Positions 3,987-60,339 of a DNA stretch of 64,000 bases are shown here, one piece after another. Every line of letters starts with the position of its first letter. The stretch's first letter is position 1. Both the position numbers and the translations under genes were made by a program. The notes under the pieces are model-generated. The model was not told the DNA's origin, did no database searches, and worked only from the letters and a program-made list of their open reading frames with translations. Source of the stretch: an uncultured Candidatus Saccharibacteria bacterium. GTDB lineage: Bacteria > Patescibacteriota > Minisyncoccia > Phycocordibacterales > UBA2100. The stretch is from the NCBI GenBank assembly GCA_964434285.1, contig CAYSUJ010000001.1, positions 240,564-304,563 of the forward strand, read 5' to 3'.

Positions 3987-5159
3987 CTATTCTAGCAACC
4001 CATTGTGCTCGATGATCTGCTTATACACGTAGGCACTGGGACGTATCTTTCGCTCGAGGGTTTGGTAGTCTATTTCAACGAGCCCGAAGCGCTTTTCAAA
4101 GCCCTGCGCCCATTCGTAATTATCGAGGAGCGACCAATACATGTAGCCGCGCACATCTGCACCTCGCTGGAGCGCTGCATGCATCGCACGCGCGAGGCGG
4201 GTGATGTAATCAGCACGAATCGCATCTTTCGCATCTGCCACCCCCGCCTCGCTCACCCACAGAGGCTTTCCGTAGCGCTTAAGCATCATGAGGGCGCCAT
4301 AGAGCCCCTCAGGATACACATCCCAATTCATGTCGGTTTTCTCGTAAATCTTTGTGTCGCCGAATTTTTTATGCTGATAGTAGTTCACTCCGATGGAGTC
4401 GCATTTATTGTAGACCTGCGAAATAACGTGGTGCGTGGAGATCCAGTTCATGAATCGCGCGCGGAGCTTGTTGATCGGGTTCCCGTTCGCATGAAAATAC
4501 ACGGTGTGATGCACGATACCGACCTCGGCACCGAAGGCAGCCGCCTTAATTGCGTCGTACGCCAGATTGTGTGCGCGCGTGAGATTATTCATAACGCGCC
4601 AGTAGCCGCGATAGTTTTTCTTTCGGAATGGCGGCCAATCACCACGTATCCATCCGAGCGATGCAAACACCGTCGGTTCGTTCATCGTGGCAAAATGGCG
4701 GCAATCGTTCCCAAGCTTCTTCGCGACGTACGCACAGTAGCGAGCGAATATTTCTGGTGACTCTGGATTCTCAAAACCACCCTTCTCCACAAACCACTGT
4801 GGGAGCGTGAAGTGCCACATCGTAACAAACGGCTTTAAACGCCGTTCGCGGAGCGCAGCCAAGACCGCAAGATAATGCCCTATCTCCCGCTCATCAAACT
4901 TCCCTTCTTCCGGCTCGATGCGCGCCCACTCTATAGAGATACGGTGACAGTTGTGCCCAAGCTCTTTCGCGATATCAAAGTCGCTTTCGAAGCGATTGTA
5001 GTGATCGCATGCTTTGTTGCACGGCGGCACGCGCCCTGCGCGTGCCGCCTCCGCCCAATCGCAGTTCTCAATACCCCCCTCGACTTGGTAGCTCGCCGTT
5101 GCGGCGCCCCAGTAGAAACCCTCGGGGAATTTTCGTTCCATGCTACCGAAGCCCGACAT
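3987..5159 (-). CDS. GH1 beta-glucosidase
   Basis: FYWGAATASYQVEGG N-terminal signature, TMNEP acid/base motif, overall GH1 length and layout. Confidence 0.9.
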   Translation of the reverse strand: MSGFGSMERKFPEGFYWGAATASYQVEGGIENCDWAEAARAGRVPPCNKACDHYNRFESDFDIAKELGHNCHRISIEWARIEPEEGKFDEREIGHYLAVLAALRERRLKPFVTMWHFTLPQWFVEKGGFENPESPEIFARYCAYVAKKLGNDCRHFATMNEPTVFASLGWIRGDWPPFRKKNYRGYWRVMNNLTRAHNLAYDAIKAAAFGAEVGIVHHTVYFHANGNPINKLRARFMNWISTHHVISQVYNKCDSIGVNYYQHKKFGDTKIYEKTDMNWDVYPEGLYGALMMLKRYGKPLWVSEAGVADAKDAIRADYITRLARAMHAALQRGADVRGYMYWSLLDNYEWAQGFEKRFGLVEIDYQTLERKIRPSAYVYKQIIEHNGLLE

Positions 5160-7448: not shown

Positions 7449-7793
7449 CGTGAATGGGTGGTTGGGAGATTAGTGGTAGTTGCCGGGGCGGCGCCAACGC
7501 CGACACCAGCTTCCCTGTCGCGAACGCGCCGGGTCGGTGATGAACGCAGGAAGAGCCTCCTCCGGCCGGTAGATCTGCCGGACGCCATTCGGGTGCCTCA
7601 TCGGCGCCTGAATGACGATCATCCTCGAATCAACGATACGCCCGCCGCGACGGGTCTCGACCTGAATCTGCATCAGCAGTTCTCCCTTTTTTTCAGGTTG
7701 ACGCCGAAAATATACACTACACTTGCTGTTTTGTCAAGACCGTGGTTTGCAAGCAATTTCCTCATTTCGGGCGAAATGAGGAAATTATGGTTT

Positions 7794-8399
7794 TCAGACC
7801 GCACGATACCGGGCAGCGCGGCGATTGCCGGTGCGACGAAGCTTGCCCGCAAGAACAAGGGTGTTTAGGTATCGCGTGGCAGTTGCCGAAGAAACTCGAA
7901 GTGCGAGTGCAACCTCGCGCGCCTGAATAGTTCCCCGCTCGCGGGCGAGCGCGAGAATATGCTCAAGATTCGCGGCGCGCTTCGCGCGCCGCGCCCTGAG
8001 TCCCTCCGCACTACTTATCTGAGGCACTAGGGCGACAGGTGGAGACGAAGGTGGCGGCGCAGGTGGTGACACGGCTTGAGCACTCGTCTGCGTCTCCTTC
8101 TTCTCTTCAATCTTCTCTTCAGTCCCGGCCGGCGCAATTTCTGGCGATTCAGCGACAGGAACTTCCTGAACTGCCGTCGCAGCGGGAACAGGCGCACTTT
8201 CAATTGGTGACACTGGCGCAGTTTCCTGGGGAGTCTCAACCTCCACAGCTTTTGCATCCGGTGTCGTTTCCGCGATAACCTCTTCCGGCACACTCACCTC
8301 AACCGGCGCAACCACACTCTCTTCTTTCGCCACTTCTTCCACGCGCATGACTTCCGGCACTGACTCACTCTCTGCAACTGTGTCACCACTCATACACAC
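7794..8399 (-). CDS. Hypothetical DNA-binding protein: acidic Pro/Glu/Val-rich N-terminus, C-terminal winged-HTH
   Basis: C-terminal REVALALRVSSATATRYLNTLVLAGKLRRTG is HTH-like. The N-terminal 130 aa are low complexity. Confidence 0.45.
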   Translation of the reverse strand: MCMSGDTVAESESVPEVMRVEEVAKEESVVAPVEVSVPEEVIAETTPDAKAVEVETPQETAPVSPIESAPVPAATAVQEVPVAESPEIAPAGTEEKIEEKKETQTSAQAVSPPAPPPSSPPVALVPQISSAEGLRARRAKRAANLEHILALARERGTIQAREVALALRVSSATATRYLNTLVLAGKLRRTGNRRAARYRAV

Positions 8400-8510
8400 A
8401 TCGTAGCATCTTCAATCGAACAATTGGCAATAATCCTTAGGAAAGTCAATTTCGCGCTAGCCGTCATATCTATCGAGGGCATGAATTACTCTAACCCCCT
8501 CCTAATACAT

Positions 8511-9261: not shown

Positions 9262-9294
9262 CGGTGCGGCAAGCTCCATTGGAGCTTGCCGCAC
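9262..9294 (+). terminator. Perfect 15-bp hairpin GGTGCGGCAAGCTCC-att-GGAGCTTGCCGCACC 3' of the 8511..9248 gene
   Basis: Read directly. No U-tract follows. Confidence 0.4.
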
Positions 9295-9355
9295 CGCCTT
9301 GTCCCCCATGAGCCCCACACATACAATAGATAAAGGCACTCCTCGTAAGAGGAGC

Positions 9356-11269: not shown

Positions 11270-11308
11270 ATACGATAACTATACCCGACCGGATAGAGTT
11301 ATCGTATG
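11270..11308. promoter_or_regulatory. 36-nt palindromic element, copy 3 (ATACGATAACTatacccgaccggatagAGTTATCGTAT)
   Basis: 11-bp perfect arms. Core CCCGACCGG is shared with copies 1 and 2. A TGCTAGAAT -10 box follows at 11345-11353. Confidence 0.5.
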
Positions 11309-12551: not shown

Positions 12552-12582
12552 TTCCAACCTCATCGTCCAGACAAAAAACATC

Positions 12583-12618
12583 CCCGACCAGCGTACGCCG
12601 GTCGGGGACTTTTTCTGA
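12583..12618. terminator. Bidirectional terminator hairpin CCCCGACC-agcgtacgcc-GGTCGGGG with T-runs on both strands
   Basis: ACTTTTT follows on the plus strand and ATGTTTTTT on the minus strand. It sits between the convergent 12155..12511 (+) and 12634..14160 (-) genes. Confidence 0.65.
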
Positions 12619-19059: not shown

Positions 19060-19124
19060 GAAATCTTCATCTTCAATAGAGATACTATAAAAAGCGCGGG
19101 ATATGCGCTTGATACACTACTCGT

Positions 19125-19799
19125 ATGAAAGTCCTCTTAGTTGAAGACGAAGCCCGGCTTGCAGATGCGCTTTCGCGCGGCCTCACGCACAAAGGCTATA
19201 CCGTCGACGTCATCGATGATGGCGAGAAGGCGCTCACCCGTATCCTCCTCCATCGTAACGACTATAACGTCATCATCCTTGATCTCATGCTCCCCGGGAA
19301 GGACGGACTCGAAGTATGCGCGACTGCCCGCGCCGAGGGCGTTACGACTCCGATTCTCATACTCACCGCTCGTGGCGAAACCGACCGCAAGGTCGAGCTC
19401 CTCCTCGCAGGCGCCGATGATTACCTCGTCAAACCCTTCTCGTTCGATGAGCTCGCGGCGCGCCTGCACGCGCTACTCAGGCGCCCGACAGAGACCGTGC
19501 CCGACATTCTAAAAGTCGGCACTATCGAATTGAATCCCGTCGAACGACGCGTCACGCGCGACGGCAAAGAGCTCAATCTGACGCTGAAGGAATTCAATAT
19601 TCTGGAATACTTCATGCACCGCCCGAACCAGGTCGTGAATCGGGAAGATTTATTATCTAATCTATGGGATTTTAACTATGCGTCCTTCTCCAACGTGGTG
19701 GACGTCCATGTCAAAAACCTTCGCAGAAAACTCGATGACGAAGAACATAGTGAACTTTTGGAAACGGTTCGGGGCATTGGGTACCGACTTCGCGTCTAA
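19125..19799 (+). CDS. OmpR-family response regulator
   Basis: Receiver domain with the phospho-acceptor Asp in ILDLMLPGKDG, and a winged-helix C-terminus. Confidence 0.9.
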   Translation: MKVLLVEDEARLADALSRGLTHKGYTVDVIDDGEKALTRILLHRNDYNVIILDLMLPGKDGLEVCATARAEGVTTPILILTARGETDRKVELLLAGADDYLVKPFSFDELAARLHALLRRPTETVPDILKVGTIELNPVERRVTRDGKELNLTLKEFNILEYFMHRPNQVVNREDLLSNLWDFNYASFSNVVDVHVKNLRRKLDDEEHSELLETVRGIGYRLRV

Positions 19800-20868
19800 A
19801 TACCAAAACAATCCGTTTTTCCGGACTGAAACACGCATCGTTGCTTTTCACGTCCTCTTTGCTGCGTTTATTGTTTCCGCACTTGTTGCCTCATACATCA
19901 ACACCTCGTATTTCATCGGCACAACGCCCACGATGAGTACCACAACCGACCCTAATGCGGTTGTCACGACGCTCATCGCGGCAAGTTTTGAACAACTCGA
20001 GTATCGCCGCATTCGCAATCTGACGCTTGTCATTTCCGCAATCGTCCTCGCAACACTCATCGCGAGCTACGTCCTCGCGCAAATATCACTCAAACCCGCC
20101 CGCGAGGCGCTCGCGCAACAAAAAATCTTTGTCAGCAATATTGCGCACGAACTCCGAACCCCGCTCTCTACCATACAAACCAACACCGAGGTGGCACTGT
20201 TCGACACCTCGCTCAATCCTGCGCTGCGCGAAACGCTCGAAAACAACGTTCGCGATCTCAAACGCATCTCGGAAATCATCAACAATTTGCTTTCACTCGA
20301 CGTCTCACTTCAGCGAGAACGCATTCCCTTTGGAAAGATCGATCTCGCGCTCATCGTGCACACCGCACTCGAAAGGCTTAACTCCCTCTCGGTCACCAAA
20401 CAAGTCCGCCTCAACGCCCCCGCGCGCGGCAATTTCATCGTGTGGGGTAACGGAAACGCACTTGAGCAAATCGTGACGAACATTCTCAAAAATGCACTCA
20501 CGCACACCCCGTCCGGCGGGCGCGTCACTATCCGGCTCGGGCGCGCGGAGCCCGCCATGGTCGAGCTCTGCATTGAGGACACCGGCGCTGGCATCGCGCC
20601 AGCCGATCTTGCGCACATATTCGAACCGTTTTTTCGTTCAGATCGTTCGCGCAGCCGCGCACGCGGTGAAGCGGGCCTCGGTCTCACGATTGTCCACGAA
20701 CTCGTCAAATTGCACCGCGGCTCGATCCGTGTGCACAGTGTCCTCAAGCAAGGAACAACCGTGCTGGTGCGCATACCAACAGGGGCACCACAGAGTGATC
20801 ACACATATCCCACGTCACCGCTCTCAAACGAAATTACGGTTGATTATTCCGAAGAGCGTGGCGTATAA
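19708..20868 (+). CDS. Sensor histidine kinase (HisKA + HATPase_c)
   Basis: H-box NIAHELRTPLS, N-box and G-boxes (DTGAGI, GLGLTIV). Overlaps the RR stop in another frame. Confidence 0.85.
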   Translation: MSKTFAENSMTKNIVNFWKRFGALGTDFASKYQNNPFFRTETRIVAFHVLFAAFIVSALVASYINTSYFIGTTPTMSTTTDPNAVVTTLIAASFEQLEYRRIRNLTLVISAIVLATLIASYVLAQISLKPAREALAQQKIFVSNIAHELRTPLSTIQTNTEVALFDTSLNPALRETLENNVRDLKRISEIINNLLSLDVSLQRERIPFGKIDLALIVHTALERLNSLSVTKQVRLNAPARGNFIVWGNGNALEQIVTNILKNALTHTPSGGRVTIRLGRAEPAMVELCIEDTGAGIAPADLAHIFEPFFRSDRSRSRARGEAGLGLTIVHELVKLHRGSIRVHSVLKQGTTVLVRIPTGAPQSDHTYPTSPLSNEITVDYSEERGV

Positions 20869-21305
20869 GCCACCTTCACGTTCAGTTCACCACTCATTTT
20901 TTACACTCTCCTCAGACTGCTCTTGGGGCCCACGAACCGCAGGGCTTTACGCGCTTTCTCCCGGAAGAAAGTTGTCCTGCGGCATTCGTGGCTACATGGT
21001 CGAGGAGTGAGTAGATTTCAACGTAATAGCTATGGCATGTGAATACACGATACACAACGCAACAATCGAACGCTCGACCGCCGGATGAAATCGGCGATGA
21101 AGAGTTAAACGTTCGAGCCGGGGAGGTGGCGTACCGAAGAGGGCGCTGCCTCCCCGGCGCGTTACGGGTGAGACTTCGCACAAAATCGCACACCAACGCG
21201 CAGCAGTCTCTGTTCAGTAAATGAATTCGTAAGTATGAATGTTTCAAATCGTCTCTAGTTCTGTGCACCGCAATGCAGTCTTTAGTAGTTCTTCAAGCAT
21301 AATAT

Positions 21306-22652
21306 ATGTCTGCTCCCACCTCTCTCAATGCACCATCATTAGTGAAAGAAACACACTCTACAAAGCCGTCGAAACACGAAACTGTTGTGGTTATAGGTGT
21401 CGGCTATGTGGGTCTTCCACTCACCCTTCGCGCGGCGGCTCACGGATATCGCGCCATTGGGTTCGACATCGATAAGAAAAAAATTGCCGAGCTCAAGAAA
21501 GGAAACGCTCTCTATATTTCCGACGACGAACAAGCGCTGCTGCACGATCTCTCTAACATCTATTTCACGCACAGCGATGCCGACATTTGGCACGCAACGA
21601 ATTACATCATCTGCGTTCCCACACCCGTCCATCACAGCCATGCGCCCGATCTCGAGCCACTGAAAAGCGCTGCGCGCATCGTCGGCAAACACATGGCGAG
21701 GGGTGCGCTCGTCGTCGTTGAGTCAACGGTGAATCCCGGGGTGTGCGAAGAGGTTGTACTCCCTATTCTCGAGCGCGAGTCGAGCCTTCGCGGCGAAGAA
21801 GATTTCTTTTTCGCGCATTGCCCCGAGCGCATTAACCCGGGCGACGATGCGTGGCACGTAGGCTCGATTCCCCGAGTCATTGGCGCACTCGGCCCCACTT
21901 CGCTCGCCCGTGCGCACGCACTCTACGATGCGATGCTGGACGCCCCGCTGCACGACATGCAATCAATCAAAGAGGCGGAGGCGGTGAAGATGGTCGAGAA
22001 TACGTTTCGCGACGTCAACATCGCATTTGTGAACGAGCTCGCGATGTCGTTCGATCGCGCAGGCATCGATCTCACGAGCGTCATTCGCGGAGCGTCCACC
22101 AAACCCTTCGCCTTCATGCAGCACATGCCGGGCTGTGGCGTGGGCGGTCACTGCATCCCCGTTGACCCGTACTACCTCATTCGCTACGGCGAGGGCAATG
22201 GTTTCGAGCACGCCTTCTTGAAAACCGCCCGTCGTATCAACGAGGCAATGCCCCGCTACACTGTGCGCCGACTTGCTGGTGCACTGGCAGAAAAAAACAA
22301 GACGCTCAAAGGATCGACGATCGCGCTTTTGGGCCTCGCGTATAAAAAAGACATCCCCGACGTGCGCGAGAGCCCCGCGCTCGCGATCATGCACACGCTC
22401 AAGAACAAGGGGGCGCACGTTCAGTCATTTGATCCGCACGTTCCCCAGCACTCAAGCGTCGGCAGTTTTGAAGACGCGCTCCACGGAGCAGACGCAGTGC
22501 TCATCGCAACCAATCACTCAGCGTTCTGTGAGCGCACGCCCGAGGAATTCGCACGTGCAGGGACGACGATTGTCGTCGACGGTCGCAACTGCCTTGATCA
22601 GAAAGCCTTCACGGCGGCGGGAATCACCTATCGCGGTATCGGACGCTCATAA
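21306..22652 (+). CDS. Nucleotide-sugar dehydrogenase (UDP-glucose / UDP-ManNAc 6-dehydrogenase family)
   Basis: N-terminal Rossmann VVVIGVGYVGLPL, catalytic Cys region GCGVGGHCIP. Confidence 0.9.
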   Translation: MSAPTSLNAPSLVKETHSTKPSKHETVVVIGVGYVGLPLTLRAAAHGYRAIGFDIDKKKIAELKKGNALYISDDEQALLHDLSNIYFTHSDADIWHATNYIICVPTPVHHSHAPDLEPLKSAARIVGKHMARGALVVVESTVNPGVCEEVVLPILERESSLRGEEDFFFAHCPERINPGDDAWHVGSIPRVIGALGPTSLARAHALYDAMLDAPLHDMQSIKEAEAVKMVENTFRDVNIAFVNELAMSFDRAGIDLTSVIRGASTKPFAFMQHMPGCGVGGHCIPVDPYYLIRYGEGNGFEHAFLKTARRINEAMPRYTVRRLAGALAEKNKTLKGSTIALLGLAYKKDIPDVRESPALAIMHTLKNKGAHVQSFDPHVPQHSSVGSFEDALHGADAVLIATNHSAFCERTPEEFARAGTTIVVDGRNCLDQKAFTAAGITYRGIGRS

Positions 22653-22714
22653 TATGTATGAAGACTCACGCACACATCCGCACAGCACACACCACACCCT
22701 CCATCGTGCGGATG

Positions 22715-24103
22715 GGTGCAGAGATCTATTCACGCCCTGTTGAGCGCGCGCGCAAAGAAACACCGCAACAACACGAGGAGCGGGCGCATGATCGGCGCAT
22801 ATGGTATGAGGTCGTACTCTTCGCGATCGCGCTCTCGATCCTCGTCTGCATCACCCTTTTAAAGGCGGAAACCGCCGCAGCTTCAGACGTCGATGGCATT
22901 CTATTGTTTTATACATTCTTTGTGACGCTGTTCCAGCTCTCGCGCCTGATGGCATCCCTCATGTACACATCGTCATACTCAAGCGTCCTGCACCCGAGAG
23001 AAGCGCAGGCTGCATATCAACCCAAAATCTCGTTTGTGATCCCGTGCATGAATGAAGAAAAGGAGATCCAGACGACGATCAGGGCATGCTTTGACGCGCA
23101 CTACCCCCGACACCTCCTCGAGGTCATCGTCATTAACGACGGTTCAACGGACGGCACGGGAGAGAAGATTCGCGAGATCAGGAGGGAGTATCCCGAATTA
23201 GTTGTCGTCGATTGGACCGAGAATCGTGGTAAACGCCACGGTATGGCAGAAGGATTTCGCAGAGCTACCGGTGAGTTAGTGATCCAGCTCGACAGCGACA
23301 GCCGCATTGAACCTCGCGACGTCGCCTATCTCGTCGAGCCGTTCCGGAATCCTCGCGTCGGCGCGGTCAGCTTCCACACTGATCCCGCGAACGCGGATGA
23401 AAATATTCTCACGAAGATGCAGGCAGCGTACTATTTCCTTTCGTTTCGCATCCTCAAAGCCGCCGAATCAACATTTCGCATTGTGTTTTGCTGCAGCGGC
23501 TGCGCCTCGGCCTACCGCCGCGACATTGTGCTCCCGATTCTCGACAACTGGCTCATTGAGAAATTCTTAGGCCTTCCTGTCACCTGGGGCGACGATCGCT
23601 CGCTCACCAATCGGGTGATCGCACAAGGCTACGACACGCTCTACAGTGATCGCGCGCGCGCCTACACCATCGTGCCGAACACGCTCCGTCAATTTATTAA
23701 GCAGCAGATACGCTGGAAGAAAGGCTGGTTTGTAAATTCCCTATTTGCATCACGCTTCATCATTCGTCGTGATCCTTTTGTTGCGTTCACCTACTTCTTC
23801 CCGCTCATGGTCGTGACCATCTTTACGCCGTTCATGGCAGCACGCGCGTTCATCTACACGCCCATTGTCTACGGCTTCTCGAGCACCCTCTATTACATTC
23901 TCGGCGTCCTCGCCATCGCCGGTCTCTTTCTTGTGTTTTACCGCTTCTTCTCTAAAGACAACCCCTACTATCGCTACGTGTTCGTGTGGGCGGTCCTCAA
24001 CATGCTCGTTCTCTCGTATATGCTTTTCGTCGCGCTCGCAACCATCCAGAACCGCGGGTGGGGTACTCGCGGAATCGCTGCTGCGAAGAAGAGCGCTGTA
24101 TGA
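22715..24103 (+). CDS. Processive family-2 glycosyltransferase (cellulose/chitin/PNAG-synthase-like)
   Basis: GT2 DxD region VINDGSTDGT...QLDSDS, QQIRWKKGW (QxxRW) motif, flanking TM helices. Confidence 0.8.
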   Translation, partial: GAEIYSRPVERARKETPQQHEERAHDRRIWYEVVLFAIALSILVCITLLKAETAAASDVDGILLFYTFFVTLFQLSRLMASLMYTSSYSSVLHPREAQAAYQPKISFVIPCMNEEKEIQTTIRACFDAHYPRHLLEVIVINDGSTDGTGEKIREIRREYPELVVVDWTENRGKRHGMAEGFRRATGELVIQLDSDSRIEPRDVAYLVEPFRNPRVGAVSFHTDPANADENILTKMQAAYYFLSFRILKAAESTFRIVFCCSGCASAYRRDIVLPILDNWLIEKFLGLPVTWGDDRSLTNRVIAQGYDTLYSDRARAYTIVPNTLRQFIKQQIRWKKGWFVNSLFASRFIIRRDPFVAFTYFFPLMVVTIFTPFMAARAFIYTPIVYGFSSTLYYILGVLAIAGLFLVFYRFFSKDNPYYRYVFVWAVLNMLVLSYMLFVALATIQNRGWGTRGIAAAKKSAV

Positions 24104-24106
24104 CAT

Positions 24107-25672
24107 ATGAAACTACACACTTTTTCACTGTCACATCACCGACTTGCACTCGTCCTATCAACGGTCGTGCTCGCGATTTTCATAGGAGGTGGCGCTTGGT
24201 ACGCGGAGCAAGAGCCTGCGCTTTCACTGCGCGGCTTGCGGGCGCTTTTCGAACGCCCACTCTATGCACTCGAATTTGCGACGCTTGATACTCGCGCTTC
24301 GACAGGTAGCGCACGGGCGATTCCCGTCCTCACCTACCATCGTATCGTTTCTGACGGGAGCGACGTAGCGAACACCACGCGCTCACGATTTAAGGACCAG
24401 ATGGCTGCACTTAAGCGCGCCGGATGGGAAACCGTGACGCTCGAAGAGTTTGAATCATTCATGCGCGGAGAGCGCACGCTTCCCGATAAATCGTTCTTAC
24501 TGACATTTGACGATGCGGCGAAAGACAGCTTCTACCCCGTCGATCCGATTCTCGAGGCACTCGGGTATGAAGCGGTCAATTTTGTCATTGTCGAATCCTC
24601 AAACATTCCGCGTACCGTGTACTATCTCAATCCGAAGGAAATCAAGCGCATGATCGAGAGCGGCAGATGGTCGATCGGCTCTCACTCATACGACGGTCAC
24701 CGGCCCTATCCCGTGGACGCCTCGGGACAGACCGGCATATTCTTTGCAGACAGGCTCTTCCGAGAGAGCGAAGAGCGGCTTGAATCAAACACCGAATTTA
24801 GAGAGCGCGTCCATGCAGACCTCGTGCTCGCGAAAGAGGAACTTGAGAAAACCTATGGCGTCCCCATTAATAGCTTTGCATTCCCCCTCGGCAACGAGAC
24901 CGGCATCAACGGCGCAAACAACTTTCCTGAAGGGTCAGCCATAACAGAAGAGGAAGCGAAATCAGTGTACGAATTCGGGTACCTGCAATTAGCAAGCCAA
25001 CACTTCACGACGAATCTGCCGCGTGTAAACGCTTCTAGCACGCCACCTATGCCGAGTGATTTTCTCGTCTACCGCATACACGTGGATTACGACTGGGACG
25101 GTGCGCGCGTTTTAGAGATTCTCGAAAACGGCCGCGCAAAGGAAATCCCGTTCAACGACGACTTTTCAGAAAACAGAGGCTGGATCAACACCTGGGGATC
25201 GATCGATCTGGGGCGAAACAATTTTGTCCTTCGCGCGACGGAGGACGGCACGAGCGCCTCAGCCTTTCTCGATGGCACCTCGCTGTGGGACGATTATATT
25301 TTCGACCTCTCGGCAGAATGGAACCAAGGACATTTGATCGTCCTTGCTGACGTCACAGAAGGCAGCACATACAACGCGTGCGTCTTCTCTCCGGGCGTCG
25401 TGCACATTCAATCAACAGTCCGTGGCGTTACAGAGACGCTTGCCGAAGTGCGCGACCCCTCAATCGGCTACGGTGAAAACGTCCGCGCGGGCGTGCGCGT
25501 TCATGGGGCCGTTATCGAATGTGCGTGGGATTTCAACTCAATAGCTGAAGCCTATTCTCGGCCATTCTCAGGCGGCATCGGCATACAAACATGGGACGAA
25601 AATGAAGGCGCGGCCGAACTGCGCGTCTCAGAAGTCATCGTCCGACCGTATGCCACCTCAACCAACAATTAA
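24107..25672 (+). CDS. Polysaccharide deacetylase (NodB-homology) with N-terminal TM anchor and large C-terminal extension
   Basis: LLTFDDAAKDS (TFDD motif) and HSYDGH. 4-nt gap from the GT2 gene. Confidence 0.7.
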   Translation: MKLHTFSLSHHRLALVLSTVVLAIFIGGGAWYAEQEPALSLRGLRALFERPLYALEFATLDTRASTGSARAIPVLTYHRIVSDGSDVANTTRSRFKDQMAALKRAGWETVTLEEFESFMRGERTLPDKSFLLTFDDAAKDSFYPVDPILEALGYEAVNFVIVESSNIPRTVYYLNPKEIKRMIESGRWSIGSHSYDGHRPYPVDASGQTGIFFADRLFRESEERLESNTEFRERVHADLVLAKEELEKTYGVPINSFAFPLGNETGINGANNFPEGSAITEEEAKSVYEFGYLQLASQHFTTNLPRVNASSTPPMPSDFLVYRIHVDYDWDGARVLEILENGRAKEIPFNDDFSENRGWINTWGSIDLGRNNFVLRATEDGTSASAFLDGTSLWDDYIFDLSAEWNQGHLIVLADVTEGSTYNACVFSPGVVHIQSTVRGVTETLAEVRDPSIGYGENVRAGVRVHGAVIECAWDFNSIAEAYSRPFSGGIGIQTWDENEGAAELRVSEVIVRPYATSTNN

Positions 25673-25742
25673 CAGCGAGCGCGGTCATGAAAGAAATCTC
25701 TCGCGATCATTCCGCACGCAATCCTCAAACCCCACGCGAGCC

Positions 25743-25852
25743 GGTGACGTGGCACACGCCTCTCGAGGGTCTTTCGCAGCGCGTCGGCGCGAGAAGGAGC
25801 AAATTTTCAGCAGAAAATTATGCGACCCCCGAGAGGCGTGTGCCACGTCACC
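25743..25852 (+). repeat. Hairpin-embedded conserved element, copy A
   Basis: 22-bp perfect outer inverted repeat GGTGACGTGGCACACGCCTCTC / GAGAGGCGTGTGCCACGTCACC. Encloses the conserved core GGGTCTTTCGCAGCGCGTCGGCGCGAGAAGGAGCAAATTTTCAGCAGAAAATTATGCGACCCCC. Confidence 0.7.
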
Positions 25853-26030
25853 GCGAGCCCCCTTCTTCATGAAAAAATAGTTAAGCCATGATCTTCATCA
25901 AAAATACATTGACCAGAAATGGAGTACCCGTAAGATTATCGATGTGTTATTCGTGTCTCGCAGTGTGGCGTTGTCGGAAACAACGAGCTCTTTGTTCCTC
26001 TCACCGATCGGGGTTCATACGCTTCTCATT

Positions 26031-26909
26031 ATGAAGCGCCTTTCTCTTCGCGATGTTTTCTCTTCGCATCTAAACGTCATTCTTATCTGCTCGCTCATCC
26101 TCGGCGCGACAGCATTTCTTGTTCCCCCACCACCTCAACGCACACCAAATGTTGCCGCTGTCGTGACTGCATCGAGCCCCTTTCAATACCACTTCGACAC
26201 GAACGACGTGCTTCACGAGTCCAGTGACTACGACCAAAGCACGAGCCCCTATTGGTGGCTCAATTCTGGCGCGCAATTACGTCTCAAAAACGGCGTTGGA
26301 TCGACCGTGCAAGGAAACCTTCCGTCGGTGGATCGTTGGCGCCTCATGTACGCCGCATCGAATCCCGTCGACACCGATAACGGCTACCACCCCCAGAATA
26401 TTTTCCGTCTCGTCACGAAGGCAACGGGAGCGAGTATGCGTGTCGAATCGCTCTTTAAGATTCACGCTGACAACTGGAGCACCTCTCCTAACCGAAATTC
26501 GTCAAACGGGCTCCTGCTCATGAGCTCCTACGTCGATGGCAACTCTCTCTACTACGCAGGACTCCGCGTCGACGGTACGGCGGTTATCAAGAAAAAGTAC
26601 AAGGGCACCTACTACACCATCACGCAACCAAAGGTTTTCTCGGGCACGTACTCTCGTGAAGGCAAGGTCAATCTCATTCCTCATAACGAATGGCTCGGAC
26701 TACGGTCAGACACGAAGCGCAATGCCGATGGAAGCGTCTCCATCACGCTTTCAATGAAACGCGAAGGTTCAAACACGTGGACAAAAATTGCAGAGGGTCG
26801 CGATGATGGGCAATACGGCGGCACGCCGCCTATGAGCCAAGGACACGCAGGCATCCGCACCGATTTCATGGACGTGAGCTTCGAGTCGTTCCGCATGGAA
26901 GCGCTCTAG
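26031..26909 (+). CDS. Hypothetical signal-anchored extracellular protein
   Basis: MKRLSLRDVFSSHLNVILICSLILGATAFLV signal anchor. No catalytic motifs recognised. Confidence 0.5.
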   Translation: MKRLSLRDVFSSHLNVILICSLILGATAFLVPPPPQRTPNVAAVVTASSPFQYHFDTNDVLHESSDYDQSTSPYWWLNSGAQLRLKNGVGSTVQGNLPSVDRWRLMYAASNPVDTDNGYHPQNIFRLVTKATGASMRVESLFKIHADNWSTSPNRNSSNGLLLMSSYVDGNSLYYAGLRVDGTAVIKKKYKGTYYTITQPKVFSGTYSREGKVNLIPHNEWLGLRSDTKRNADGSVSITLSMKREGSNTWTKIAEGRDDGQYGGTPPMSQGHAGIRTDFMDVSFESFRMEAL

Positions 26910-26917
26910 GTGGGGTC

Positions 26918-27018
26918 TCATCATAACATGTTTGACGGGGTCTTCGGAGCGCGTCGGCGCGAGACTGAGGGAAATTTCAGCAGAAATTTACCCGACCCCG
27001 GAGAACATGTTGTGATGA
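26918..27018 (+). repeat. Hairpin-embedded conserved element, copy B
   Basis: Outer arms TCATCATAACATGTT / AACATGTTGTGATGA. Core GGGGTCTTCGGAGCGCGTCGGCGCGAGACTGAGGGAAATTTCAGCAGAAATTTACCCGACCCC. Confidence 0.7.
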
Positions 27019-27135
27019 GATACTCCTTCATCCTCACTTCAGGGCACATCGCGTACAGTGAACATGTTCCGGCAAGTGCGGGACTGGTCGAAAAGCGCGC
27101 TTATGCGCCCATTACCAGCCGTAACAACACCTCGT

Positions 27136-27258
27136 ATGGAACACACTACTGATACCATCACGTGTGACAAGTGCGGCGCAAAGTTCGATGCGCGCAGTGA
27201 GTACGAAACTCACTATCAAGACGTCCACAAGACCTCCGCACCAAAGTCGCGTGAGTAA
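27136..27258 (+). CDS. Possible 40-aa C2H2-type zinc-finger peptide
   Basis: MEHTTDTITCDKCGAKFDARSEYETHYQDVHK has C-x2-C-x12-H-x4-H spacing. A perfect 12-bp hairpin CGACATCGCCAT-tccag-ATGGCGATGTCG follows at 27272-27300. Confidence 0.3.
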   Translation: MEHTTDTITCDKCGAKFDARSEYETHYQDVHKTSAPKSRE

Positions 27259-27355
27259 TACCCAGGAACGACATCGCCATTCCAGATGGCGATGTCGTAA
27301 GGGTGCATTCTATGCGATACTAGGGGTATGTCGCGACGACACACCCTGTATTTGA

Positions 27356-29392
27356 GTGCCAGCACCCGCACCGGCCCGCCAGCCTAATACAATGTCACCC
27401 GCCACGATTCGGCATCTTGCGTACGTTGGTGGTGTTGCACTATTCGCAGGAGTCTATTACGTCACCGCAAAATTTGGCCTGCGCGTGACAGAACTACACC
27501 CAAGCGTTACAACCATCTGGGCGCCAACCGGTATCTCATTTGTCGTACTGTTGCTCGCGGGCATCAGATACTGGCCAGGGGTTTTTATCGGAGCATTCGC
27601 CGCGAATCTCACTACCTTTGGCACGGTGATCACGTCATGGCTCATTGCATGCGGCAACACGCTCGAGGCCGTCGTCATCACCTACCTCGTCATAACATTT
27701 GCATTCGGCGTGCGCGTGTTTGATCGTCTCCAAACCGTCGGCACATTCATCGTGGCCGCGCTCGCGGGAGGTGCGATCAGCTCCTCAGTCGGCGTTGGCA
27801 GTCTTCTCATTTTCGATTTTGCAGATCCGCATCTCGCCACGACCATCTGGACAACATGGTTTTTAGGAAACCTCGGCGGTGCCATCGTGATCGCGCCCTT
27901 AGCTCTCGCTTGGTGGAACAACAACCGCATGACCTGGAGCAAAAGGCAGTTCCTTGAAATCGGCGCGGTGCTCTCCGGTGTCCTTCTCACAGCGTATGTG
28001 ATTTTCGGCCCCCCCAGTTTCCCCTTCGACTTTCTTGTCGCACCCGTTCTCGTGTGGGCCATCATGCGCTTCTCGATGCGCGAGGCAATGAGCGCCTTCG
28101 CGCTTCTCTCGGCATGCGCGGTTTTGGGAACCATGGTGGGAAACGGTCCGTTTGCCGCTCATCCGCCAGCGCTCTCGCTCCTCTATTTGCAAACCTTCTT
28201 CGTCGTTGTGGGCATGTGTATTCTTGCACTTTCAGCGACGGTCGCCGAACGTCGAAGCATTGAAACATCGCTCAAAAATGCTGACCGCGCCAAAGACCAG
28301 TTCCTCTCAATGCTCTCTCACGAGCTTCGAAATCCCTTAACGACCATCGTAAGCTACGCGCAGCTTCTCACCTACGGCAAGCGCACTGCCGACGAACGCC
28401 TCATGTTAGACAACATGCAGAAAGAAATCGAGCACATTACACACCTACTCGAAGACCTCCTCGATCTCTCGCGCATCCGTCGCGGCCGCATCGAGCTCAA
28501 GCGAGACCTCGTCAATGTTGAGAAAGTCGCTCGCGATGCGGGAGAGAGCGCTCATTCGATCATGCACGAACGCGGGCTCGCCTTTTCTGTCGAGAGCGAA
28601 TCATCACTCTATACGTGGGGCGACGCAACGCGCATTAAGCAAATGATCGTAAATCTGCTTACGAATTCCGCAAAATACACCGACGAAGGCTCGATCACGC
28701 TTTCTGCGCATGCGGAAAAAGAATCGATCGTCGTTCGTGTGAAGGATACGGGCATCGGCATTTCGCCCGCGCGTCTTCCGTTTTTGTTTGATGAATCCCG
28801 AGCGCACGGAGCGCTATCGAAACGCCACTCGCGCGCAGGCCTTGGCATTGGCCTCTCGCTCGTCAATCGCCTTGCCGCTCTCCACGGCGGCACACTGAGT
28901 GCGGAGAGCGAAGGCGAAGGCAAGGGCAGCGTCTTTACGATTCGATTACCGCGCGCTGCCGCAGTCTCGATAGCGCCCGCGGAAACACTCACCTTGCCCG
29001 ACATGGAGAAAGTACCCCCAGCGCGACCAGCTGCAATGCTCTCGATTTTCGTCGTCGACGACAATATACTCTCAGCCGACGCGCTCGCGCAGCTCCTCCA
29101 CACTTATGGCTATCCGACCGAAGCTCTCTACAGCGGTCGCGCACTCCTCAAACGTCTCACCATGCGAGTTCCTGATGTCATCCTGCTCGACATTGATCTC
29201 GGCGATATGAGCGGATACACGGTTGCGGAAAAAATGCACGCACTCCATCTCAACCCTCAACCAATTCTTATCGCACTTTCAGGGTACGGATCCGACGATG
29301 ATATCGAGCGATCACGCGGCGAGGGATTCGCGCACTATTTAGTCAAACCAGTCAACATCACGCACGTGCGAGAAATACTCGCTCGCCTCTAG
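27356..29392 (+). CDS. Hybrid sensor histidine kinase: MASE1 membrane domain, HisKA/HATPase_c, C-terminal receiver
   Basis: About 8 TM helices of MASE1 type, H-box LSHELRNPLT, HATPase G-boxes, and a receiver with VILLDIDLGDMSG. Confidence 0.85.
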   Translation: MPAPAPARQPNTMSPATIRHLAYVGGVALFAGVYYVTAKFGLRVTELHPSVTTIWAPTGISFVVLLLAGIRYWPGVFIGAFAANLTTFGTVITSWLIACGNTLEAVVITYLVITFAFGVRVFDRLQTVGTFIVAALAGGAISSSVGVGSLLIFDFADPHLATTIWTTWFLGNLGGAIVIAPLALAWWNNNRMTWSKRQFLEIGAVLSGVLLTAYVIFGPPSFPFDFLVAPVLVWAIMRFSMREAMSAFALLSACAVLGTMVGNGPFAAHPPALSLLYLQTFFVVVGMCILALSATVAERRSIETSLKNADRAKDQFLSMLSHELRNPLTTIVSYAQLLTYGKRTADERLMLDNMQKEIEHITHLLEDLLDLSRIRRGRIELKRDLVNVEKVARDAGESAHSIMHERGLAFSVESESSLYTWGDATRIKQMIVNLLTNSAKYTDEGSITLSAHAEKESIVVRVKDTGIGISPARLPFLFDESRAHGALSKRHSRAGLGIGLSLVNRLAALHGGTLSAESEGEGKGSVFTIRLPRAAAVSIAPAETLTLPDMEKVPPARPAAMLSIFVVDDNILSADALAQLLHTYGYPTEALYSGRALLKRLTMRVPDVILLDIDLGDMSGYTVAEKMHALHLNPQPILIALSGYGSDDDIERSRGEGFAHYLVKPVNITHVREILARL

Positions 29393-29895
29393 CGCGATCG
29401 CTCCAGATCCACCCATCGATACTGCAACCCCTGATACTCCCGATCCTCCTCAAAAATGACGTTATTAAACTCTTCTTCATATTCAGGAAAAAATGAATCC
29501 CCCTCTTTCTCATCATCGATAAGCGTGAGATACAGCCTGTCGGTAAACGGCAGCGCTTGTCGGTAGACCTCCCCTCCGCCACCAATAAAAACCTCCTCAC
29601 CCCCCGGCGCACCTTTCGCCTTATCAATCGCCCCCTCCACTGACCCAGCAACCATCACATCATATCGATTTACGAAATCGATATTTCGCGTGACGACAAT
29701 ATTCGTCCGTCCCGGCAAGGGTTTCCCAATAGCCGCAAGAATCGATTCAAACGTCTTCCGCCCCATAATCACCGGATGCCCCAACGTGAGTTCCTTAAAC
29801 CGCTTCAAATCATCCGGTATGTGCCACAAAAGCTGATTATCCTTCCCCAAAACCCGCCCCCTCCCAATCGCCGCAATGGCCGAAACCCCCGCCAT
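29389..29895 (-). CDS. folA: Dihydrofolate reductase
   Basis: AIGRGRVLGKDNQLLWHIPDDLKRFKELTLGHPVIMGRKTFESI is the canonical DHFR N-terminus. Confidence 0.9.
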   Translation of the reverse strand: MAGVSAIAAIGRGRVLGKDNQLLWHIPDDLKRFKELTLGHPVIMGRKTFESILAAIGKPLPGRTNIVVTRNIDFVNRYDVMVAGSVEGAIDKAKGAPGGEEVFIGGGGEVYRQALPFTDRLYLTLIDDEKEGDSFFPEYEEEFNNVIFEEDREYQGLQYRWVDLERSR

Positions 29896-29896
29896 A

Positions 29897-30529
29897 TCAG
29901 ACTGCCTTATGAGCAGATTTCAACTTCTTGATATCCCCCGAAAAAACTAATTTCATCTCAGTGGCCTTTTCTTTCTTACCCTTTTCGACGACATCTTTTT
30001 TATGCCAACGACTTTTACGCGCTTCGACGGGATGCTTGAGCTCCTCAAAAACAACCTGGCAGATACGCTCTCCAGGATGCAGAGTGATCACCTGGGAGCG
30101 CGTGTTGTTGCGCACAGGAAGCGTGAGCGGCCCCTCATAGCTCGCATCAATAATTCCCGTGAGGTCAACGGAAAGCCCCTTGCGATTCACTGACGAGCGC
30201 GGGTACAACACACCCATCAAGTCTTTAGGGAGCTTCACCGTCTCAAACGTCGAGACGAGTACATATTCTTGCGGCAAGAGATCAAACGTTTGTCCCTGTT
30301 CGAGCTCGATCACGTCAAAATACTCGGGCCCATGATCCTTCAGCGGGTCGATCATATACGCTTCACGCCCCTCTTTTGTCATGCGCCACTGCTTTGGTAT
30401 GAGAAAGGTGAAGCCCATGCGCAAATCCACCGCATGTGCCTGAAGTTGAAAGGTGTCGAGTGATGGATGAAAAGCGAGTGATCCTTCCTTCACGCGCGCA
30501 ATGATCTCGTCTCTCGTGATGACAGCCAT
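29897..30529 (-). CDS. dcd: dCTP deaminase / dUTPase-superfamily protein
   Basis: Dcd-like beta-barrel motifs. 1-nt gap to folA. Start taken at MAVITRDEII. Confidence 0.7.
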   Translation of the reverse strand: MAVITRDEIIARVKEGSLAFHPSLDTFQLQAHAVDLRMGFTFLIPKQWRMTKEGREAYMIDPLKDHGPEYFDVIELEQGQTFDLLPQEYVLVSTFETVKLPKDLMGVLYPRSSVNRKGLSVDLTGIIDASYEGPLTLPVRNNTRSQVITLHPGERICQVVFEELKHPVEARKSRWHKKDVVEKGKKEKATEMKLVFSGDIKKLKSAHKAV

Positions 30530-30539
30530 AGTCGTACAG

Positions 30540-31376
30540 TTATAACACAATAGTCAGCCCCTTAATTGCCTCTTGTGGTCGGTACTGCTTCACAAATTCG
30601 GCAACGATTTCATCAACTAATTTCGGATGCTTCTTCTCAGCGCGTTCGTAGGCATTCTTCGGCATACTAATCTTGATGGGCTTATGTGTATTCTTGCGCC
30701 TTAACATCTCCTTCACGGCATCGTATTGGTTGTCATAGATATGCGCGTTCGAGATGGAGTGCGAGTAGATACCCGGTTTGACCTTCAATTTTTGCGCGAG
30801 AAACATCTGAAGCAGTGCGAAACCCGCCACATCCGCCGGGAACCCGAGCACCATGTCGTTCGAGCGCACCATATTATGCAAATTTAAACGACCGCCGATA
30901 ATGTTCACGGTAAAGGTATACGGGCACGGCACATTCTTCTTGTTGGTAACCCCAAGACCATCCCCCGCCGGATCCCACGTCACCACCACACCATGGCGCG
31001 AGGTCGGATCTTCTTTAAGATGCTTTACGAGAAGCCCGAGCTGATCGCGCCCGAAGTGTTTTCGCCACCGATAGCCGTAGGCCACCGTGACAACATCTGC
31101 CGGATTGGTAAAACTATCCCAAATCTTCGTAAAATCTCGTAAAAAATCTTCGGGTTTGCGTGCGCCAGAAATAAACCACACCTGCTCCGCGACAAACATC
31201 TTTACCGGAATCTTGCGGAGCGTAAGAAGTGGGAAACCGTCTTTCTCGATGTCTATCGAAAAATGCACCCCTGGAATCGCAGCCACTTCGTGTCCCGTGC
31301 GCTTATTCTTCTCGCGCACACCCTCCTTGACGATGCGCTTCAGCATATCTTGATAGATCGCATCGAACTTTGTCAT
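30540..31376 (-). CDS. thyA: Thymidylate synthase (ThyA-type)
   Basis: ThyA fold motifs (FHGRWRG-like region, CxxxQ-type catalytic region). Same operon as dcd and folA. Confidence 0.75.
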   Translation of the reverse strand: MTKFDAIYQDMLKRIVKEGVREKNKRTGHEVAAIPGVHFSIDIEKDGFPLLTLRKIPVKMFVAEQVWFISGARKPEDFLRDFTKIWDSFTNPADVVTVAYGYRWRKHFGRDQLGLLVKHLKEDPTSRHGVVVTWDPAGDGLGVTNKKNVPCPYTFTVNIIGGRLNLHNMVRSNDMVLGFPADVAGFALLQMFLAQKLKVKPGIYSHSISNAHIYDNQYDAVKEMLRRKNTHKPIKISMPKNAYERAEKKHPKLVDEIVAEFVKQYRPQEAIKGLTIVL

Positions 31377-31415
31377 GCGAAGATTATACGCGGTGTGCTA
31401 TATAGTACCTAGACC

Positions 31416-31907
31416 ATGGAGGATTCGAACATGACTGAGACAGGAATCAAGTATCCGTATCTGCCCGAAGGCAAGAAAATTCTGTACGTCCCCGAAGACC
31501 ATCCGCATATGCAACGTGCAAAGGGGCGCGCTCTTGAGCACTCTCTCGACGACGCGGTGAAGACTGGTGCGGTTGTCGTTCGCGGCAGTATTGTCATCGG
31601 CGAGGGGGCAAACGGGAGCGACTATCACAAGACGAACGAATGCGAACGTGTGAAGCGCGGGATGCCGACTGGTCAGGGTTATGAGCTCTGCGAAGGATGC
31701 CACCCGAAGAATCATGCCGAACCACGCGCAATCGCTGACGCGCGCACGAGCGGTCACTCGACCGAAGGCGCCGACCTGTACTTGTATGGTCACTGGTGGT
31801 GTTGCGAACCTTGCTGGCGAGCCATGATAGAGGCGGGTATTGCGAATGTGTACCTACTCGAGCGCAGCGAAATTCTCTTTAACAATAAACGCGAGGCGAA
31901 ACGCTAA
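31416..31907 (+). CDS. dCMP deaminase (CDA-fold zinc deaminase)
   Basis: HAEPRAI (H-A-E) and CCEPC (PCxxC) zinc-binding motifs. Confidence 0.8.
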   Translation: MEDSNMTETGIKYPYLPEGKKILYVPEDHPHMQRAKGRALEHSLDDAVKTGAVVVRGSIVIGEGANGSDYHKTNECERVKRGMPTGQGYELCEGCHPKNHAEPRAIADARTSGHSTEGADLYLYGHWWCCEPCWRAMIEAGIANVYLLERSEILFNNKREAKR

Positions 31908-31912
31908 CCTAA

Positions 31913-31945
31913 GGAGCCGGCAGTTCCCTGAACTGCCGGCTCATT
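31913..31945 (+). terminator. Rho-independent terminator GAGCCGGCAGTTC-cctg-AACTGCCGGCTC plus ATTTTGTG
   Basis: 12-bp perfect stem 6 nt after the dCMP deaminase stop, with a T-rich tail. Confidence 0.7.
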
Positions 31946-36720: not shown

Positions 36721-36776
36721 CCCAAGGCACCCATCCCCAAGGTCCCCAAGGCGACGCCTTGTTCCAAACAAGCCAA

Positions 36777-37448
36777 TCAGAGAGCCATATTTTTATAGTA
36801 CTCTGCAGCATCTTCCAGGACCTCTGCCAGTTCCACATTTGTTTCGAACAAAGTGCGTGTTTCCGGATCAAGTACTAAGCTTTCAGCCCTCGGTGCACCA
36901 AAATAGTATCCGGCGCTGCTATATTCATAATTCAAAAGACGCTTCTTGAGTTGTGCAATATCTGCCCTGAGAATCCCCCGCTTCCAATGTGGTTCGAACA
37001 ATTCTGCAGGATTAAGATGGAGATAATTCGGTATGTGCATGAAGTGCGCTTCACTCGTGATTCTTCGTGCACGAAATGGTTTGAGAAATAGATTTCCCGT
37101 TCGTTCGTTGCGTTTATTGAAATACATCGTATACGCAGTACCAACTTTTTGCATATAAGAAGAAATGCCTCCTTCTACTATCTCCTGCATCACTATATGA
37201 AAATGATTTGGCATCAGACAATACGCAGCAATAGATACGAGAGGATCGCCGCGTATATGTCTGAAGATCTCATCGTGCGAAAGGAAGTTAACGTCATTTT
37301 GATGTATTGCTTTCGTACTGTTACTCAGATACAAAGCCTGAAGAAAACGCCGATAGTCATGAGGCGAACAGAAAACACGCCTCTTGTCGACGCCACGATT
37401 GTAACAATGATACCATTCACCGACTCCAAAGGACTCTCGCAACGCCAT
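36777..37448 (-). mobile_element. Y1 (HUH) transposase of the IS200/IS605 TnpA / RAYT family
   Basis: YHCYNRGVDKRRVF and AYCLMPNHFHIVMQ match the Transposase_17 His-hydrophobic-His and catalytic Tyr-region signatures. Flanked by palindromes sharing CAAGGCGACGCCTTGTTC. Confidence 0.8.
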
Positions 37449-37461
37449 TGCCTCTACTATA

Positions 37462-37502
37462 CCACCCCACAGAACAAGGCGACGCCTTGTTCTGTGGGGT
37501 GG
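37462..37502. repeat. Perfect 20-bp hairpin CCACCCCACAGAACAAGGCG-a-CGCCTTGTTCTGTGGGGTGG, 13 nt upstream of the RAYT start
   Basis: Read directly. The same CAAGGCGACGCCTTGTTC core is at 36747-36764, after three CCCAAGG tandem repeats (36721-36752). Confidence 0.6.
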
Positions 37503-43149: not shown

Positions 43150-43399
43150 ACGTATTTAAAGTTGGTTTTCCCTGGTAATGGTGGAACTGCGACCGTCGTC
43201 AAAAGTTTTTTCCTGCTGGAAAAACTTTCGACCCTGTCTCGCCCCGACGGGCTCCGGCCTTGCGACGGGGCCCCAACCCCGTCTCACCCTCTCCGAGAAC
43301 CCGAGAGCATTTCCCTAGCAGCTAGAAGCTAGTACCTAGAAGCTCTTACCGATTCTCGTGAGAAGGAGGGAGGTTGCCCTCCCTGCCTTCTTCCGCCAT

Positions 43400-44272: not shown

Positions 44273-44755
44273 AATTATTTTTGAATTTAGAAGATTCTGT
44301 TAATTCCCTTTTAATCTCCCATTCCGCCCCCGTACGGATGGCGTAATGCTGGAGTCCTCGACCTCGTGTCTGTGTAAGAGCCGCTAAGCCCCCCGTGCAG
44401 TCCACGGCGCGATTCCTCGGGGGAGGAATCGCGCCATACACTTCACGCGTTTTCCTCCGAACGAACAGCCAAAACACCACGAGCAGAAACTCGCGACGTT
44501 AATACAAAAAAACCAGTACTGAAAATCTTGTAATGAGTCATGCGCTCGAAAGCGCTGGTTTCCCCATCTCACTTAACAAGCTCGCGCTTGTTATGGAGAT
44601 TGCTCACTGATTTCCCTTACTGGTTTCCTTACCATCTCACTTTGCGTAGAGATGATGCAGGGATTATCTCGCACCCACACGTGAAGTCAATGTTTTTTTC
44701 GTGTGGATAACGCCGACGATACAAATATCTGCATGCGTCAATAATTTTTAAAAGA

Positions 44756-44790
44756 AAAATCCCCGGAAAGTTCTGGGGATTTTTCTTTCT
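44756..44790. terminator. Bidirectional terminator AAAAATCCCC-ggaaagttct-GGGGATTTTT
   Basis: Perfect 10-bp stem with A/T runs on both sides. Confidence 0.6.
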
Positions 44791-56069: not shown

Positions 56070-56088
56070 ACGAGCCAAAGTGATGGCA

Positions 56089-60333: not shown

Positions 60334-60339
60334 ACCAAT

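Follow-up and report, generated by a model that had tools for sequence, protein, structure and literature searches.

A hairpin element of Patescibacteria with a conserved apical junction and free outer arms, probably mobile and non-autonomous

Background

The DNA analysed here is a stretch of 64,000 nt (hereafter the window) from an uncultured Candidatus Saccharibacteria bacterium, and its subject is a non-coding hairpin element present in several copies, in which a conserved branched core caps an outer stem of free sequence. In lifestyle it recalls the REP/REPIN-RAYT systems (repetitive extragenic palindromes, REP, and REP-associated tyrosine transposases, RAYT). These are short extragenic hairpins at gene ends that occur in either orientation and commonly form inverted pairs; they reach tens of copies per genome, act as one strand and can make the 3' ends of mRNAs more stable. 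The presence of a Y1 transposase gene in the window adds to the likeness. However, REP and REPIN sequences have conserved palindrome arms, a GTAG or CGTC tag and a free loop, whereas here the apical core is conserved, the arms are free and no consistent tag was found. A RAYT gene is flanked by copies of the repeat in question, whereas neither the Y1 gene in the window nor its homologue at locus L089 is flanked by the element (L numbers label loci from other genomes and metagenomes).

[quoted passage not shown] They are non-coding, about 100-150 nt long, folded end to end, intergenic with flanking repeats, polymorphic between strains and co-transcribed with their neighbours, and they break short-read assemblies. 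They differ in having conserved terminal inverted repeats from a parent insertion sequence (IS), a fixed target duplication and a range limited to a species or genus, whereas the element described here has unrelated arms, inconsistent flank repeats, covarying internal helices, a phylum-wide core and no parent IS. The arms of copies A to E of the window bear no sequence relation to one another, and no IS with matching ends was found; sharing of arms was seen among recent copies within some metagenome-assembled genomes (MAGs). The attC sites of integrons are recognised as a folded single strand with free sequence, conserved structure, an extrahelical base and polarity, and they stand 3' of open reading frames (ORFs), but they conserve R and L boxes at the stem base, vary at the apex and are arrayed beside intI, none of which is seen here.

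A functional analogy only is offered by animal primary microRNA (pri-miRNA) hairpins and by the AGNN-capped RNase III substrates of yeast Rnt1p, a pattern that the AGCA loop of the element fits. In these, as here, a stem of free sequence lies between a conserved apical signal and basal single-stranded motifs (GCGAG in one clade of the element), which is the layout of a measured double-stranded RNA (dsRNA) processing substrate. These systems are eukaryotic, however, and for the element no sign of processing, guides or targets was seen, its arms having no other match in the window or among the loci fetched. The element is thus like REP/REPIN and hairpin MITEs in lifestyle, but it lacks their defining features and its layout is reversed. 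Bacteria of the candidate phyla radiation (CPR) have genomes of roughly one megabase with very short intergenic spacers. To our knowledge, few repeats or regulatory RNAs have been described in them.

Results

The copies of the element considered in the window are the following (P1 to P4 are the helices described below).

25743-25852, plus strand: copy A, whole hairpin, arms GGTGACGTGGCACACGCCTCTCG / CGAGAGGCGTGTGCCACGTCACC, core at 25766-25829
25735-25742, plus strand: 8-nt direct repeat CGCGAGCC on either side of copy A, left copy (right copy at 25852-25859)
26915-27021, plus strand: copy B, whole hairpin, arms GTCTCATCATAACATG / CATGTTGTGATGAGAT with two G·U pairs
50606-50717, plus strand: copy C, whole hairpin, between an ORF with a lycopene-cyclase domain and a convergent SET-domain gene
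55870-56069, plus strand: copy D, otherwise ordinary hairpin, 88 nt inserted (55908-55995) into P3 on its 5' side
55722-55834, minus strand: copy E, diverged subfamily, head-to-head with D, flanks GAGCGAGAC and GCGAGCGG
43191-43270, minus strand: candidate copy F, weak, diverged or degenerate, 5' part GTGAGACGGGGTTGGGGCCCCGTCGCAAGGCCGGAGC resembling the insertion of D

The window thus holds about one copy per 10 kb. Copies A to D, which a first-pass annotation had reported, were all found where it had placed them on the plus strand. Each of them folds as one long hairpin with a common branched cap, with z-scores of -9.2 to -12.1 against shuffled sequences, and the 18-mer AWTTTCAGCAGAAAWTTA occurs four times without a mismatch, against a chance expectation of 0.11. 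With covariance model R1, built from 24 sequences, copy A obtained 90.8 bits (fold -77.4 kcal/mol, z -12.1), copy B 76.6 bits (-55.9 kcal/mol on the plus strand versus -44.5 on the minus strand) and copy C 87.2 bits (-74.5 kcal/mol); the stop codon of the SET gene lies within the 3' arm of C. Copy D folds at -121.5 kcal/mol, its 3' half is matched by the model at 44.9 bits, and the insertion inside it bears a second AGCA-loop hairpin. The same annotation had described the outer stems as perfectly complementary throughout; long paired stems are indeed present at every copy, but B has two G·T pairs and D one A·C mismatch. Likewise, a single orientation 3' of a plus-strand gene holds for A to D only, E and F being on the minus strand.

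Copy E scored 58.8 bits (fold -65.1 kcal/mol, z -5.6). All seven base pairs of its upper P4 have been replaced by others (CUGCGCG/CGCGCAG), with the AGCA loop and the junction unchanged, and a member of its subfamily was also found in another metagenome (L066, 11165-11241). Copy F scored 34.7 bits (E about 5e-6) and its fold barely exceeds that of shuffled sequences (z -2.4); its membership in the family is doubtful. A module GTGAG..GGGGTTGGGGCCCCG.CGCAAGGCCG.AGC followed by an AGCA-loop hairpin is common to the insertion of D (55908-55995) and to positions 43230-43290. This GTGAG module of D and F could stem from a nested insertion or represent another type of element, related to the first. 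L089 has an isolated 5' arm, AGCGAGTCGGGCATGTGCG, of a different subfamily (that of L094); read on the minus strand, it stands some 55-25 nt upstream of the complete element at 5066-5142, which suggests remnants of tandem or nested insertion.

The core is a 64-nt three-way junction that caps P1, the outer stem of free sequence. It is closed by P2 (GGGGU/ACCCC), from which the P3 arm follows, made of P3a (5 bp), an internal loop (G-S-A on the 5' side, G-A on the 3' side) and the P3b hairpin. After a single junction A comes P4, in which an invariant G-C pair is followed by 2 bp, a bulged A and another 7 bp up to the invariant AGCA loop, and a single invariant G stands at the junction between P4 and the 3' strand of P2. 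The bulged base, given as a T in the first-pass annotation, is in fact an A on the plus strand. The whole element is about 85-150 nt long, and the total stem has a median of 20 bp (range 6-42) when the outer stems of 60 distinct elements are extended beyond the model.

Model R1 aligned 75 matches, 59 of them distinct, and in the distinct sequences standard pairs fill 92.8% of the cells, with changes on both sides in 29 of 30 pairs. None of 500 shuffles matched the observed values, and only 43-56% of cells were paired when the partners were slid by 1-3 columns. An alignment made by MAFFT, independent of the model, gave 88.8% paired against 39-58% for the slid versions. This supports selection on base-pairing, with covariation in every helix. 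The double changes that had been pointed out in the internal hairpin (AATTTTC/GAAAATT versus AAATTTC/GAAATTT) are present and agree with the larger alignment, which also upholds the covariation of the extension pairs (GCA/TGC, GCG/CGC and GGG/CCC). Compensatory substitutions beyond those in controls are what a structured RNA would generally be expected to show; the comparison leaves the choice between RNA and single-stranded DNA (ssDNA) aside.

Mobility of the element is borne out by relatives of the window that have empty sites. L103 is syntenic with window positions 19124-31926 at 77-82% nucleotide identity (its deacetylase is 84% identical) and it is devoid of copies A and B, BLAST joining window position 25742 to 25852 and 26909 to 27021. 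Its empty site for A has a single ...CACGCGAGCCCCCTTC, and the sequence at that for B is GCGCTCTAG|TCCTTCATCC, B being without a flanking repeat. In L102, whose SET protein is 92% identical to that of the window, the stop codon of DsbA directly abuts the homologue of window position 56092 onward, so that positions 55713-56091, with E and D, are extra in the window. L064 (filled) and L095 (empty) form a further pair. The covariance model had no matches in L100, L101, L102 (9.8 kb) and L103, and no hairpin was found at the empty sites for A, B and E plus D in L103 and L102, which indicates that the arms arrive together with the core.

Near-identical whole hairpins were found at different loci of a single MAG in two sets, L013/L019/L029 and L028/L032/L036. 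The copy at L093, at a non-syntenic place, has arms related to those of D, from which it differs by compensatory and wobble changes, and no insertion. L093 was considered as a same-locus empty site for the insertion of D and was ruled out, the flanks being non-homologous, and L007 was ruled out as syntenic to the D/E locus, as there is no protein similarity. Autonomous or cargo-carrying versions were not found among the copies, D being the sole split element. The Logan short-read contigs L042 and L043, which carry the window's own deacetylase, both end inside copy A and are therefore uninformative on its site. The element is an assembly breakpoint for short reads.

The distribution of the family was analysed with an exact pattern on one genome per species. 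It gave 39 matches, 26 of which have the full core and their own outer inverted repeat. The remaining 13, in other phyla, have no core and their number is that expected by chance; two matches on viral contigs were also attributed to chance, neither having the core. All true members with an informative title belong to Patescibacteria (Paceibacterota, Minisyncoccia, Saccharibacteria, Uhrbacteria, Kaiserbacteria, Nomurabacteria and Parcubacteria). In metagenomes, a more permissive pattern yielded a further 53 loci and 45 covariance-model matches. The first-pass annotation had recognised no Rfam family in the core, and none was found: Rfam 15 gave no match at the gathering threshold in the window, and a scan of the element regions at E<=10 yielded nothing beyond generic miRNA models of long hairpins, which scored 24-34 bits where their thresholds are 80-140. 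A full-text literature search by keyword only, which is weak evidence of absence, found no description of the family. The element family is apparently uncatalogued and confined to Patescibacteria (CPR).

One important question is which strand is selected. In the outer stems of the 60 distinct elements there are 795 Watson-Crick pairs; G·U was counted 71 times, A·C 5 times and other irregularities 27 times. A G·U pair on one strand is an A·C on the other, which indicates that pairing is kept on the strand reading GGGGUC...AGCA...GACCCC. In addition, one position of P3a is occupied by a U·G in 37 of the 59 sequences. The gene context, which rests on a crude ORF call, was obtained for 41 elements; these are intergenic, in 14 convergent, 24 co-directional and 3 divergent spacers. 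In the co-directional spacers the element is antisense to its neighbours in 15 cases and sense in 9, so that coupling of its orientation to the upstream gene is unsupported across the family, and G·U but not A·C pairs are retained in the antisense copies too. No σ70-like promoter was found ahead of the window copies and no U-tract after the stems of any of them, and the terminator scan was silent at the elements, which do not have the GC-rich hairpin directly followed by a U-tract of an intrinsic terminator. Antisense copies with G·U pairs, together with the lack of promoter and U-tract, indicate that the selected strand is not simply that of the neighbouring mRNA and that the elements are not canonical terminators. 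Hence, the reading as a 3'UTR or terminator-associated RNA, one of two that had been put forward, is not established. Canonical bidirectional intrinsic terminators (A-tract, GC stem, T-tract) are present in the window at 12572-12617 and 44751-44788, and this genome therefore uses ordinary terminators, unlike the element. Head-to-head pairs are formed by E and D in the window, at L096 (544-621, minus, and 726-805, plus) and at L007 (7116, minus, and 7632, plus).

Copies are also retained in place. L105 (82% nucleotide identity) has an orthologue of C (86.1 bits) that differs at 7 of 112 nt, versus about 18-24% in the flanks; in the arms, one A-U has changed to G-C by compensation, another A-U has become G·U, and a G-C has become A·C. 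Compensatory changes and wobbles also separate L024 from L085 and L061 from L090, and in the orthologous filled pairs L022/L035, L061/L090 and L024/L085 (70-80% flank identity) the arms have diverged yet remain paired. This foldability after insertion points to a local function or to a conversion-like correction of the palindrome; the latter would leave the G·U bias unexplained. Both copy C and the adjacent lycopene-cyclase-domain ORF are absent from L097-L101, which had suggested that they were inserted as one cassette. This was ruled out, since the gene order VIT1-ORF-SET is also present in L105, L106 and L107, which carry the ORF there. At the site orthologous to C in L106 (2432-2575) and L107 (1070-1215), with 70% identity, the stem base and a P2-like helix are kept, and the interior of about 95 nt is different, folds poorly and has no model match. 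On its sequence, the hairpin of L106 and L107 would be a decayed copy or a variant of C.

The motif GCGAG stands at both stem feet, at symmetric distances, in 14 of 59 elements versus about 1% expected. The GCGAG clade comprises A, D, E and about 15 others, and B, C and L036 have no such motif. Four elements have a perfect GCGAGCG on either side, and the empty site for A has one copy of the motif. From this arrangement, the motif looks like a preferred target, an element end or both, rather than a plain fixed-length duplication.

Discussion

The element is probably a non-autonomous mobile hairpin of CPR bacteria that acts via a single strand of fixed polarity. It is gained as one unit, arms included, in short spacers at gene ends. 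The active form would be one strand of fixed polarity, the long stem would bring the two ends of the element together, and the invariant junction and loops would be where a trans-acting protein takes hold to copy or move it. We favour RNA as the active form, with an ssDNA intermediate possible; our reasons are the conserved U·G of P3a and the location of A to D downstream of co-oriented genes, from which read-through could transcribe them. After insertion, the hairpin, which is very stable, probably serves in addition as a barrier or processing site at 3' ends, and this could explain its retention.

Several observations weigh against this explanation. The flank repeats are inconsistent, with 8 nt at A (single in the empty site), none at B and L036, and GCGAG(C)G on both sides in many elements; moreover, in five elements that come from at least four sources and have unrelated arms, the left flank is GCGAGAC and the right flank GCGAGCG without exception. 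The arms of the window copies are unrelated, and recent copying within the source genome is thus not demonstrated. All-against-all BLAST of 157 neighbouring ORFs found no protein family recurring beside the elements and no mobilising enzyme; only housekeeping families from orthologous loci were recovered (histidine kinase, CTP synthase, T2SS-F and 5'-3' exonuclease). The element also stands directly upstream of pyrG in L003, L025, L030 and L088, a fixed position that mobility leaves unexplained; in the window and L095 it is likewise placed upstream of a gene for a MASE1 histidine kinase. Such fixed positions suggest a host function beyond mobility. Finally, the sequence evidence at hand appears to fit RNA and ssDNA alike.

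A possible alternative, to which we give clearly less credit, is that the element is a host structured RNA module and not primarily selfish: a cis-acting 3'-end or intercistronic RNA with a protein-binding junction on a dsRNA stem that RNase III could cleave. It would stabilise, process or insulate transcripts, and its copies would come and go like other small genes. This agrees with the strong covariation, with loops and a junction invariant across CPR classes, and with orthologous copies that have compensatory changes and fewer substitutions than their flanks; the fixed positions upstream of pyrG and the MASE1 kinase gene, the location at gene ends with avoidance of divergent promoter regions (3/41), and the place of copy A, which comes after a stop codon and before the following promoter-like site, also speak for it. 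It is harder to reconcile with an orientation independent of the flanking genes (15 antisense versus 9 sense) in which G·U is still kept, with the absence of a promoter of its own, with close relatives that are copy-free over 8-16 kb of synteny, and with near-identical whole copies in one MAG, which imply copying. The two explanations are compatible and not exclusive.

A broader and tentative reading is that of a structure-defined, CPR-wide element, mobile and also kept by selection: a ribonucleoprotein-type module whose invariant junction would recruit a conserved CPR protein and whose stem would be processed or used in transposition. The stem of free sequence might be measured and processed, as in a pri-miRNA or RNase III substrate, which would yield locus-specific duplex RNAs, or it might serve a structure-specific, sequence-independent transposition. 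Searches with the arms as guides or spacers gave no second match in the window (<=4 mismatches) or in the fetched loci (<=3), except for same-genome copies and the homologous L093. Stem processing, if true, would be a new bacterial dsRNA pathway. The conserved apex with free arms implies recognition by structure and not by terminal sequence. With a core conserved from Saccharibacteria to Paceibacterota and Uhrbacteria, the element would rank among the most widespread non-coding features of CPR bacteria, and it would be a practical marker, being strain-variable and breaking short-read assemblies.

An explanation that we consider unlikely is a REP/REPIN-like system, mobilised as ssDNA by the Y1 (HUH) transposase of the window.

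36777-37448, minus strand: Y1 (HUH) IS200/RAYT-like transposase gene, 223 aa, motifs NHFHIV (HUH) and NYLHLNP (Y)

The protein has both motifs, its score against Pfam Y1_Tnp is 26.5 bits, which exceeds the cut-off of 23, and its best NCBIfam match is REP-associated tyrosine transposase; this match, however, reaches 38.7 bits, below the cut-off of 80. The element-bearing L089 encodes a 48%-identical homologue (7640-8415; flanks GGCAAGGT-AAG-ACCTTGCC). Y1 enzymes work on a single strand of hairpin DNA, which would fit the ratio of 71:5 between G·T and A·C and the independence from gene orientation, and the head-to-head pairs recall REP doublets. Nevertheless, the Y1 gene is flanked by palindromes of its own, AACAAGGCG-N-CGCCTTG, at 37462-37502 (perfect, 20-bp arms) and 36745-36763 (partial), which are unrelated to the element and have no copies elsewhere in the window or in 108 fetched loci. 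Elements derived from IS200/IS605 (PATE-like) enter 3' of a short defined motif, leave no duplication, have hairpin ends specific to one strand and follow the direction of replication in their orientation. Compared with them, the strand-specific pairing is present and GCGAG is found at the stem feet (14/59), but the single large hairpin fits poorly, and so does the 8-nt repeat of A, as IS200/IS605-type enzymes give no target duplication. The Y1 gene is a lead as mover, and nothing links it to the element.

The first-pass annotation had also proposed that a mobile core of about 70 nt enters the loops of pre-existing, locus-specific terminator hairpins. Long perfect palindromes without a core do exist in the window (37462-37502, 9262-9296 and 7755-7786), L106 and L107 share the stem base and a P2-like helix with C around a different interior, and copy D shows that sequence can insert within an element. 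The proposal is refuted by the empty sites of L103 and L102, which hold no hairpin, so that the arms belong to the inserted DNA; furthermore, one clade has conserved flank motifs outside the unique arms, the arms travel with the core among loci and genomes (e.g. D versus L093) and the stems have no U-tract. We regard it as highly improbable. Least probable of all is an integron-like attC or gene-cassette recombination site, which the strand-specific folded hairpin, bulged base, branched apex, position directly 3' of ORFs at A, B and C, and the initial appearance of the ORF plus C as a single indel would recall, since that ORF is not cargo (it is present there in L105, L106 and L107), no RYYYAAC/GTTRRRY boxes (AAC...GTT) were seen by inspection at the stem bases, the copies are dispersed and not arrayed, and a scan of about 40 window proteins turned up no integrase.

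Other features of the window

The GC skew is negative in every 2-kb bin of window 1-64000 (cumulative -3.0), which places all of it on a single replichore, the plus strand being C-rich. The sense strand of four of the six element copies is on this C-rich strand. The palindromes at 9262-9296 and 7755-7786 are unique, perfect and core-less, with 15-17 bp and spacers of 1-2 nt. A second, unrelated palindromic repeat family, ATACGATAACTAT..CCG / CGG..ATAGTTATCGTAT, is intergenic at 1375-1412, 2051-2090 and 11270-11307. At 57772-62181, a DabA-like gene (PF10070, 699 bits) is followed by a membrane subunit of the proton-antiporter type; by domain content this looks like a DAB-type pair for inorganic-carbon uptake, which would be unexpected in CPR bacteria.

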